8,624 bases of DNA, taken from IMG/VR virus record IMGVR_UViG_2541047910_000001, one strand, 5' to 3'. A model generated the notes under the pieces. The model ran no database searches, was not told where the DNA came from, and was given only the letters and a program-made list of their open reading frames with translations. Made by a program: the position numbers and the translations under genes. Shown here piece by piece: positions 6,978-7,400 of this stretch (position 1 is its first letter; every line of letters begins with the position of its first letter). The DNA comes from a virus. Taxonomy: Monodnaviria > Loebvirae > Hofneiviricota > Faserviricetes > Tubulavirales > Inoviridae.

Positions 6978-7400
6978 ATGAGTAGAAATAACGAAACAAG
7001 CGGCGTTGAACTGGTTGTCGTCGGCGTATTTGCTTTCTGTCTGGCAGTTGTTGCCTGGCTAATGAAAACTTTCGATGTTGAATGGCAAACAGCACTGGAA
7101 ACTGCGCCTGGCCTGATAGTCTGGCTGCTTGTTGTTGGGGCGGGGATCTTTTTCGGGATCAAAATGGAAACAGGCCTTGTTCGCTGGGGTGCTCCACTGG
7201 CGATCGCCCTTCTGATTCCGGTATTCAAACCAATTCTTAAGGAAGCTGCCGGAGTACGTGAAATGGGTGGGTTGGTTTTCGATGATATGGTTTCGTGGTA
7301 CGGAACTGGCTGGGGAATGTCGTTAATGTTTTTCGGTATTCTTATCGTCGGATACGGTCTGCTTTATTGGTGGCACAGAAGAAACTCTTATTATTGGTAA
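6978..7400 (+). CDS. Predicted 4-TM inner-membrane protein, function unknown
   Basis: 140 aa with four hydrophobic helices (ELVVVGVFAFCLAVVAWLM, GLIVWLLVVGAGIFFGI, WGAPLAIALLIPVF, MSLMFFGILIVGYGLLYWW); AGGA 8 nt upstream; visibly GC-richer than the downstream genes. Confidence 0.6.
   Translation: MSRNNETSGVELVVVGVFAFCLAVVAWLMKTFDVEWQTALETAPGLIVWLLVVGAGIFFGIKMETGLVRWGAPLAIALLIPVFKPILKEAAGVREMGGLVFDDMVSWYGTGWGMSLMFFGILIVGYGLLYWWHRRNSYYW

Follow-up and report, generated by a model that had tools for sequence, protein, structure and literature searches.

The dif-integrating filamentous phages CUS-1 and YpfΦ share a layout, also that of the prophage studied here, with a regulator positionally homologous to CTXΦ RstR, in the position of a phage repressor, and cells that harbour YpfΦ are partly protected against superinfection (PMC4266046). 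The open reading frames (ORFs) at the end of CUS-1/YpfΦ and UPΦ prophages are the main unknowns of these phages in the literature (PMC4266046, PMC7307601): about 1.6 kb of CUS-1 differs from YpfΦ, with "orf1 and orf1a" in place of YPO2271/YPO2272 (PMC4266046), and in UPΦ a first extra ORF, "h3", found in 221 of 229 prophages, is followed by the rarer h4/h5 (PMC7307601). Here we analyse an 8,624-nucleotide stretch of Inoviridae DNA (IMG/VR record IMGVR_UViG_2541047910_000001, the window below), in which a gene at 6978-7400, named TM4 here, encodes a small protein with four predicted transmembrane helices between a regulator gene and a nuclease gene. We conclude that TM4 is an autonomous backbone gene of these prophages and not a partner of the nuclease pair that follows it.

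Among characterised single proteins, RexB of phage λ resembles the TM4 protein in several respects. It has four transmembrane helices. Both are polytopic inner-membrane proteins of similar size (144 amino acids (aa) for RexB, 140 for TM4), and the gene of each follows the prophage repressor gene on the same strand. They differ in that λ RexB has RexA, whereas TM4 has no RexA-like partner, its upstream regulator being variable and its downstream cargo variable or absent, and in that RexB belongs to a lambdoid phage and TM4 to an inovirus. Alignment of λ RexB with a 46-sequence TM4 profile (hhalign) gave a probability of 0.06% and an E value of 0.75, and no RexB family appeared in a Pfam scan of 30 members. 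Exclusion proteins are documented in inoviruses as well, for example PfsE (PA0721) of the Pseudomonas Pf phages, a small protein that causes superinfection exclusion when it binds the host inner-membrane protein PilC (PMC8764522), which is the role proposed below for TM4. Unlike TM4, its gene is not beside the repressor, and its target, type IV pili, has no known relevance to these E. coli phages. PfsE is also much smaller than TM4. A further likeness is to the immunity proteins against pore-forming colicins and type VI secretion system (T6SS) membrane effectors, which are small inner-membrane proteins of three to four helices, often carried on mobile elements. We infer that TM4 may be an analogue of λ RexB in place and architecture and of PfsE in purpose, and claim no homology to either.

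A sharply bounded cassette on unrelated phage backbones

Around 60 related loci, taken from E. coli genomes, one-genome-per-species contigs, IMG/VR contigs and exact-protein look-ups, were mapped by blastp and blastn. TM4 occupies a sharply bounded cassette (~6877-7405) with 80-100% identity over ~35 prophages. On the right, homology stops at 7400-7405, at the TM4 stop codon, in every compared locus, and restarts at 8537-8550 to run on to 8624; the junction directly after TM4 bears out the proposal of the initial annotation that the accessory region is mosaic. The left edge depends on the gene upstream: next to the same regulator homology continues leftward, next to a 60-aa protein of PHROG 2503 it ends at 6877, next to a 40%-identical helix-turn-helix (HTH) protein at 6889, and in the most diverged alleles at 6961. 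The same TM4 allele (96-99% aa identity) is found on CUS-1-type and on UPΦ/IKe-type backbones, the latter with a pIV only 27% identical to that of the window and with Zot, pVI and pIII that have no match in it. Some carriers (L006, L007, L041-L043) have a different replication protein.

The regulator (6432-6878) is itself exchangeable. The gene upstream of TM4 encodes either the identical HTH protein, one of 36-40% identity, or an unrelated PHROG 2503 protein of 60-89 aa, while in a distant inovirus (L045) it is a 59-70-aa ORF matching PHROG 5219, and in non-phage loci DUF6471. The 60-aa protein looks like a ribbon-helix-helix protein by eye, but Pfam gave no match. Since the upstream gene can be exchanged, a specific regulator-TM4 partnership, of the sensor/anti-repressor or toxin-antitoxin kind, is rejected. 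In all 10 displayed contexts of the identical regulator TM4 comes next, followed by six different cargo sets, and two tandem prophages within one scaffold (L047/L048) carry different cargo.

Prevalence tells the same story. Among 5426 complete E. coli genomes TM4 is present in 128, the regulator in 121, the replication initiator G2P in 115 and the nuclease+DUF6953 pair in 24. These frequencies, together with at least 11 alternative cargos and an empty version of the site (described below), contradict the suggestion that TM4 forms a three-gene system with the downstream pair. In inoviruses TM4 always lies directly 3' of a small DNA-binding regulator, on the strand opposite to the structural genes, and directly 5' of the cargo slot. 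Its backbone status follows from a cassette that is near-unchanged across differing regulators, replication genes, morphogenesis genes and cargo, and this independence implies that no specific phage partner is required.

The prophage and its gene set

The window holds a filamentous (Inoviridae) prophage that is integrated at dif and belongs to the CUS-1/YpfΦ group. This identity rests on Pfam and PHROG matches for G2P, G5P, Zot, secretin and the DUF2523 protein, on identity to a prophage of E. coli D8, and on a perfect dif. Positions 214-8624 are 99.99% identical to the D8 prophage, which adjoins hipBA and has the perfect 28-bp dif at its far (pIV) end, and megablast of the whole window against the phage GenBank collection gave no match. 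The features of the window are as follows.

181-1251, minus strand: secretin pIV (profile scans)
1251-2276, minus strand: Zot/pI (profile scans)
2280-2567, minus strand: DUF2523 protein in the pVI position, PHROG 974 "minor head protein" (profile scans)
2580-4292, minus strand: pIII-like protein, 570 aa (window gene set)
4357-4590, minus strand: coat-like protein, 77 aa (window gene set)
4879-5196, minus strand: G5P (profile scans)
5208-6260, minus strand: replication initiator G2P (Pfam Phage_CRI, 1.2e-73, and G2P_X_C)
6432-6878, plus strand: HTH_3 (Cro/CI-type) regulator (Pfam HTH_3, 1.6e-9; PHROG 3557)
6879-6977, plus strand: spacer of 99 nt (RNA fold, conservation)
6978-7400, plus strand: TM4 membrane gene, 140 aa (ORF; PHROG 4174, E 1.6e-85)
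7401-8541, plus strand: cargo slot (homology gap between prophage variants)
7468-8262, plus strand: gene for a restriction-endonuclease-like (REase-like) protein with a DpnII-MboI domain (Pfam; PADLOC Aga_Helical-REase, 1.3e-34)
8273-8539, plus strand: DUF6953 gene (Pfam)
8542-8624, no strand assigned: terminal element of 83 bp with a dif-like site and an inverted repeat (blastn, DNA fold, sequence)

The G2P gene is divergent from the regulator and is the first of the opposite-strand replication and morphogenesis genes. At its other end the window lacks 876 bp present in D8 (positions 1-218 correspond to 1822-2038 of the D8 locus, L001, the match beginning inside the dif site, and position 214 onward corresponds to 2915 onward). 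This deletion takes out two small ORFs and ~58 C-terminal residues of the pIV secretin, which has 356 aa in the window and 414 aa in D8. With this shortened pIV, the window's copy of the prophage is probably incapable of virion export.

A genuine gene of a small membrane protein family

TM4 begins with ATG, with an AAGGA ribosome-binding site 5-9 nt upstream. Kyte-Doolittle hydropathy (19-residue windows) gives four peaks, at residues 10-28 (2.6), 43-61 (2.2), 65-83 (1.6) and 111-129 (1.7), the third being marginal and rich in proline. AlphaFold2, run on a 46-sequence alignment, places long helices at 9-32, 36-62, 68-90 (kinked) and 111-137 (mean pLDDT 83.7, pTM 0.71); a model built from 19 close homologues reached a pLDDT of just 66.5. 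Across the 46 homologues loops 1 and 3 are net acidic, while loop 2 and the C-terminus are net basic, and by the positive-inside rule this points to an N-in/C-in orientation. The protein is therefore predicted to be a four-helix inner-membrane protein whose 27-residue loop 3 faces the periplasm. The first description of the gene, as one for a four-helix protein between the regulator and the nuclease, holds up in the ORF, the hydropathy, the model and the HTH_3 and REase-like neighbours.

Residues 1-140 align to positions 1-140 of the PHROG 4174 profile (E 1.6e-85), which is also matched by distant relatives from Proteus, the L045 inovirus, L060 and the metagenomic locus L016 (E 2e-13 to 2e-32). 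Close homologues (51-99% identity) are confined to Enterobacterales, in Escherichia, Klebsiella, Salmonella, Citrobacter, Phytobacter, Pantoea, Lonsdalea, Kosakonia, Pectobacterium and Mixta, and also in Yersinia enterocolitica. An exhaustive search with the family profile through 1.84 billion cluster representatives returned only 41 matches at E ≤ 0.001, the full-length ones mostly of 110-140 aa and aligned across the whole protein, and homologues down to ~20% identity keep both length and architecture. P85 is invariant in the family and P73, W107, Y108 and G125 are at least 90% conserved; motifs recur after helix 3 (P-x-L-x-[YH]-x-A-G) and before helix 4 (W-Y-G), so that the family-wide conserved positions (P73, P85, A91-G92, W107-Y108-G109, G125-Y126) fall in helix 3, loop 3 and helix 4. 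Substitutions are mostly in the N-terminus and helix 1. Pairwise ratios of nonsynonymous to synonymous divergence (dN/dS) among phage-borne alleles are 0.02-0.19, with dS up to 1-1.9. Given the PHROG 4174 match, the homologues of equal architecture and the low dN/dS at dS above 1, TM4 is a genuine gene, not a chance ORF, under strong purifying selection in a small family. Antisense ORFs across it (6938-7228, 96 aa; 6970-7095, 41 aa) are ruled out as genes by conservation of the sense frame and the low dN/dS.

Matches of TM4 to characterised families were at chance level in Pfam (30 family members), PADLOC and a PDB sequence-profile search, fold comparison of the family gave no match to anything characterised, and a search for the distant clade in IMG/VR found none. 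A phage holin was also considered and rejected: Phage_holin_3_6 was hit at a chance-level E of 0.33 in 2 of the 30 members and the window has no endolysin. Filamentous phages are released without host lysis. One 99%-identical TM4 sits with inovirus genes and a perfect E. coli dif on a contig (L004, JARKOR010000214.1) of a metagenome-assembled genome labelled "Candidatus Nanosynbacter", and this contig is probably an enterobacterial binning contaminant.

As first noted, TM4 is richer in GC (0.475; 0.461 at third codon positions, GC3) than the AT-rich genes that follow, namely the REase-like gene (0.352, GC3 0.257) and the DUF6953 gene (0.360, GC3 0.281). The anomaly lies on the other side from the one first supposed. 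Phage backbone genes range over 0.37-0.47, with the coat gene, which likewise encodes a membrane protein, at 0.474, and 300-bp windows elsewhere reach 0.49-0.50; TM4 is thus ordinary for the phage backbone and stands on its conserved side, and the outliers are the two downstream cargo genes, a foreign insert. First codon positions contribute much of the GC excess of TM4 (GC1 0.553), which a membrane protein rich in Gly, Ala and Val would be expected to show.

The spacer and probable expression of TM4

The 99-nt spacer between regulator and TM4 has an RNA fold of -28 kcal/mol (z -3.25) with two hairpins, at 6890-6905 and 6907-6935. The second has a 10-bp stem and a 9-nt loop and is followed by TTCTTTATT, and because of this arrangement it looks like an intrinsic terminator or attenuator. 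Alternatively, the hairpins may form a cis element of the single-stranded DNA (ssDNA), for example a complementary-strand origin or a packaging signal. From ~6877-6894 onward the spacer is conserved together with TM4 behind three regulator types; in the diverged alleles L007 and L041 its sequence is unrelated, yet two hairpins are again present. Hairpin 1 differs between the spacer of the window and those of L034, L008 and L060 according to regulator type (GTCTCA-GGAA-TGAGAC versus GTACCA-CGAA-TGGTAC) and appears to belong to the end of the regulator cassette.

Scanning 6200-8624 for promoters and terminators yielded no excess of sites over shuffled sequence and overlooked hairpin 2 owing to its 9-nt loop; reading the sequence between hairpin 2 and the TM4 ATG revealed no plausible promoter. 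As TM4 lies in the transcription unit of the regulator and has no promoter after hairpin 2, low-level read-through is the simplest model: transcripts from the regulator promoter would pass the 6907-6935 hairpin and yield a low level of TM4 protein in the lysogen, as its position suggests.

The cargo slot and the terminal element

Between the TM4 stop codon and the terminal element lies a slot that holds one of at least 11 unrelated cassettes, or none; in L041/L042 it is empty, with the TM4 stop codon 6 bp from the terminal element. The cassettes are the following.

REase-like gene and DUF6953 gene, the pair of the window
ECs_2282-type zinc-ribbon protein and a 159-aa ORF
ORF of 363-369 aa
AbiJ_NTD4 + DUF7014 protein
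ORFs of 89-101 aa and 240 aa
ORFs of 98 aa and 262 aa
ORFs of 155 aa and 123 aa
Single ORFs of 110-114 aa, of 321 aa, of 374 aa and of 112 aa

Slot variants are borne by L002, L004, L005, L008, L010, L023, L025, L032-L038, L040-L042, L044 and L047-L056. A Lar-like zinc ribbon in one cassette is a weak match, below the Pfam cut-off. Because the cassettes include AbiJ-like, Lar-like zinc-ribbon and REase-like members, this variety suggests that the slot is a site of defence-gene exchange in dif-integrating inoviruses.

The terminal element (8542-8624) is 92-100% identical by blastn in nearly all loci. It contains a dif-like site at 8546-8572, GGTTCGCACAA-TGACG-TTATGCTAAAG, with 9 of 11 matches per arm to E. 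coli dif around a 5-nt centre (judged by eye), and an inverted repeat at 8560-8619 around a GC-rich hairpin (DNA fold z -5.5). It probably represents the junction derived from phage attP (attL), may include a terminator, and agrees with the paired inverted XerC/XerD sites of YpfΦ (PMC4266046). Given the position of the slot between the TM4 stop codon and the attachment site, recombination between tandem or co-resident Xer-dependent elements could plausibly swap cassettes. A ~72-bp part of the terminal element also occurs at several hundred places on E. coli plasmids with ~93% identity; on one IncF-size plasmid (L156) the match adjoins a TIR-domain gene pair between IS26 copies.

Homologues beyond intact phages

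The only phage gene at the Mixta intestinalis locus (L020, 9595-10411) is an intact TM4 of 52% identity, separated by ~380 bp from a perfect dif that has an Hcp gene on its other side. At a Proteus vulgaris locus (L057, 9212-10384; JAOBQG010000015.1) a TM4 homologue of 35% identity begins 9 bp after the end of a full-length nuclease homologue of 57% identity. Here the gene order is reversed relative to the window, a dif with one mismatch is ~750 bp away, and phage structural genes and DUF6953 are absent; the locus looks like a prophage remnant with two inovirus accessory genes side by side, though these may occasionally act as a pair. Intact TM4 copies in the dif-side remnants of Mixta and Proteus fit a benefit to the host. 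Rosenbergiella (L006, 15068-15328) has, besides the prophage copy, a second one with in-frame stops, further from dif, and the copy of Pectobacterium (L009) is partial. Just past the Rosenbergiella prophage come an Hcp-like gene and then split amidase-like ORFs, recognised by eye from translations.

More distant homologues (~23-27% identity) are found on metagenomic contigs (L011-L019) with no phage genes in view. Their module consists of an IS1595-family transposase on the opposite strand, a small DUF6471 or 53-aa ORF, the TM4 homologue, a variable insert and a convergent membrane protein of 166-168 aa. The insert may be PAAR + Amidase_2 + a small protein or a VgrG-like gene, identified by eye in translation and without a Pfam record, or it may be absent. 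The small protein of the PAAR/Amidase_2 insert has a hydrophobic, signal-like N-terminal segment. The succession of a small upstream protein, a membrane gene and a variable cassette is a pattern shared by phage and non-phage loci.

Possible functions of TM4

TM4 lies directly after the regulator on the same strand, and exclusion genes follow repressors in many temperate phages. We tentatively favour TM4 as a protective inner-membrane factor expressed in the lysogen, with superinfection exclusion of filamentous phages as the leading mechanism, a reading that is possible but falls short of probable. It draws on the inner-membrane location, the regulator-strand position, the independence of partners, dispensability in YpfΦ and persistence alone beside dif. 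Because the conserved residues cluster in helix 3, loop 3 and helix 4, the protein would act at the periplasmic face of the inner membrane, where it might block a membrane step that filamentous phages share despite different pIII proteins, such as Tol-dependent DNA entry, and so protect the carrier cell.

Several points weigh against this reading. YpfΦ carries the unrelated ORFs YPO2271/YPO2272 at the TM4 position and makes infectious virions (PMC4266046), so TM4 is dispensable for YpfΦ virion formation and, for the same reason, not needed for its partial superinfection immunity; no Y. pestis name occurs among the TM4 homologues, in agreement with a YpfΦ without TM4. Position is the only ground for assuming expression in the lysogen, the scan of 6200-8624 having found no convincing promoter, and hairpin 2 may terminate transcription completely or serve as an ssDNA element in replication or packaging. 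The remnants may have kept TM4 through the geometry of deletions and not through selection, and one remnant copy is decayed (L006) and another partial (L009). The distant homologues beside T6SS genes, without phage genes, point equally to an immunity role.

That role would make TM4 an orphan or acquired immunity protein against a membrane-targeting toxin (a pore-forming colicin or a T6SS effector), carried for the benefit of the host, which we consider unlikely though far from negligible. Immunity proteins to pore-forming toxins are of similarly small size with three to four helices, the conserved motifs of TM4 are predicted to face the periplasm, distant homologues lie directly 5' of PAAR + Amidase_2 or a VgrG-like gene (L016-L019), Hcp genes are near the Mixta and Rosenbergiella copies, and TM4 stays intact in prophage remnants. 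Yet none of the 30 members scanned matches a colicin or T6SS immunity family in Pfam, no toxin gene is consistently adjacent, and downstream of the amidase effector of L016 lies a gene that is likely to provide its immunity. The T6SS genes occupy the variable position and are absent from the sister loci L011-L015, and therefore look like cargo, not partners, while a shared location in the dif region accounts for the Hcp neighbours in the two Erwiniaceae. Somewhat less likely again is a function in the phage life cycle, such as tempering the envelope stress that the secretin/assembly machinery causes, anchoring replication or assembly at the membrane, or stabilising lysogeny. The gene is quasi-core, being at least as frequent as G2P in E. 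coli and probably identical to UPΦ "h3" with its high prevalence (PMC7307601), and is under purifying selection like that on essential genes; but it lies on the regulator strand, away from the replication and assembly genes, and is kept on two unrelated assembly backbones with differing replication proteins, which makes a specific partner among them unlikely. The infectious YpfΦ virions made with unrelated ORFs at this position (PMC4266046) also speak against such a function, as does survival of TM4 alone in remnants and in loci without phage genes.

Partnership with a neighbouring gene is harder still to sustain. In favour of TM4 as a sensor or effector of a defence system with the REase-like nuclease, with or without DUF6953, the two genes are neighbours on one strand, with no obvious terminator in 7401-7467. 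The nuclease does match defence-associated REase models (its N-terminal ~105 residues match PDC-S35, and PADLOC assigns Aga_Helical-REase), and the Proteus vulgaris homologues 9 bp apart are an independent case of adjacency. Against this, ~80% of TM4-bearing E. coli genomes lack the pair, the slot takes many other cargo types or stays empty, the GC3 of TM4 and nuclease differ sharply, and the Proteus locus beside dif resembles a remnant whose genes may be mere co-residents. With a two-sequence alignment of the nuclease as query, homologues of 43-100% identity were recovered at 80 metagenomic and 12 viral loci, and TM4 was present in only 4 of these 92, all copies of the same E. coli phage; a TM4 family profile found none in the other ~88, many of them on short contigs, and DUF6953 stood beside the nuclease solely in the same four. 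The neighbourhoods of the other homologues are heterogeneous, and an inovirus contig (L146) has a 58%-identical nuclease without TM4. The three-gene form of this model is largely refuted, and a nuclease-TM4 system in any form is very unlikely. Since DUF6953 adjoins the nuclease only in this E. coli phage, it is doubtful that even the two are a fixed unit; the REase-like family is widespread, with at least 494 metagenomic relatives in very diverse neighbourhoods. No more credible is a toxin-antitoxin module in which an upstream DNA-binding antitoxin restrains TM4 as a membrane-depolarising toxin and stabilises the prophage. The order of a small HTH or DNA-binding protein and a small membrane protein does resemble that of type II modules, and hipBA-like and other such modules are common in these regions; but a toxin needs its cognate neutraliser, and the same TM4 allele (96-99% aa) stands behind three or more unrelated upstream proteins, homology breaks off at the stop codon of the upstream gene, a hairpin separates regulator from TM4, the Mixta and Proteus copies have no such upstream gene, and the regulator is in phage repressor position (PMC4266046).

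A bolder form of the exclusion hypothesis, which we regard as improbable as a whole, is that TM4 founds a new exclusion/immunity family acting at the periplasmic face, where it would target a step that unrelated filamentous phages, and perhaps Tol-dependent colicins, have in common, and is at the same time the fixed, repressor-driven "anchor" gene of an Xer-site-adjacent slot that exchanges AbiJ-like and REase-like defence cassettes. A new family of this kind would explain why one allele is found on two unrelated phage backbones.

Correspondence with described ORFs

Prophages of the CUS-1/YpfΦ and UPΦ kinds have been associated with extra-intestinal E. coli and pandemic Y. pestis, and their terminal ORFs can now be split into a conserved autonomous membrane gene and a hypervariable slot that extends from the TM4 stop codon to the attP-like site. 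The split shows which gene is the candidate for a phage-intrinsic role (exclusion or immunity) and which are candidates for swappable defence or fitness cargo. If it is true that TM4 blocks a common step of filamentous-phage entry, it would be the first such factor for enterobacterial inoviruses.

TM4 is probably the gene previously listed within CUS-1 orf1/orf1a and as UPΦ "h3", an equivalence suggested by layout. It had been seen before merely as a hypothetical ORF, and its topology, the edges of its cassette, its sharing between two phage groups and its wider family are new. UTI89 and the CUS-1 host are both of serotype O18:K1:H7. UTI89 has the regulator, TM4 (96% nucleotide identity) and the 369-aa ORF, the last two spanning ~1.6 kb, in agreement with the length of CUS-1 that is unlike YpfΦ, and, as expected from the "h3" and h4/h5 of UPΦ, in ECONIH2, cited as carrying UPΦ as a tandem triple, a 60-aa ORF is followed by TM4 and then by two cargo ORFs.

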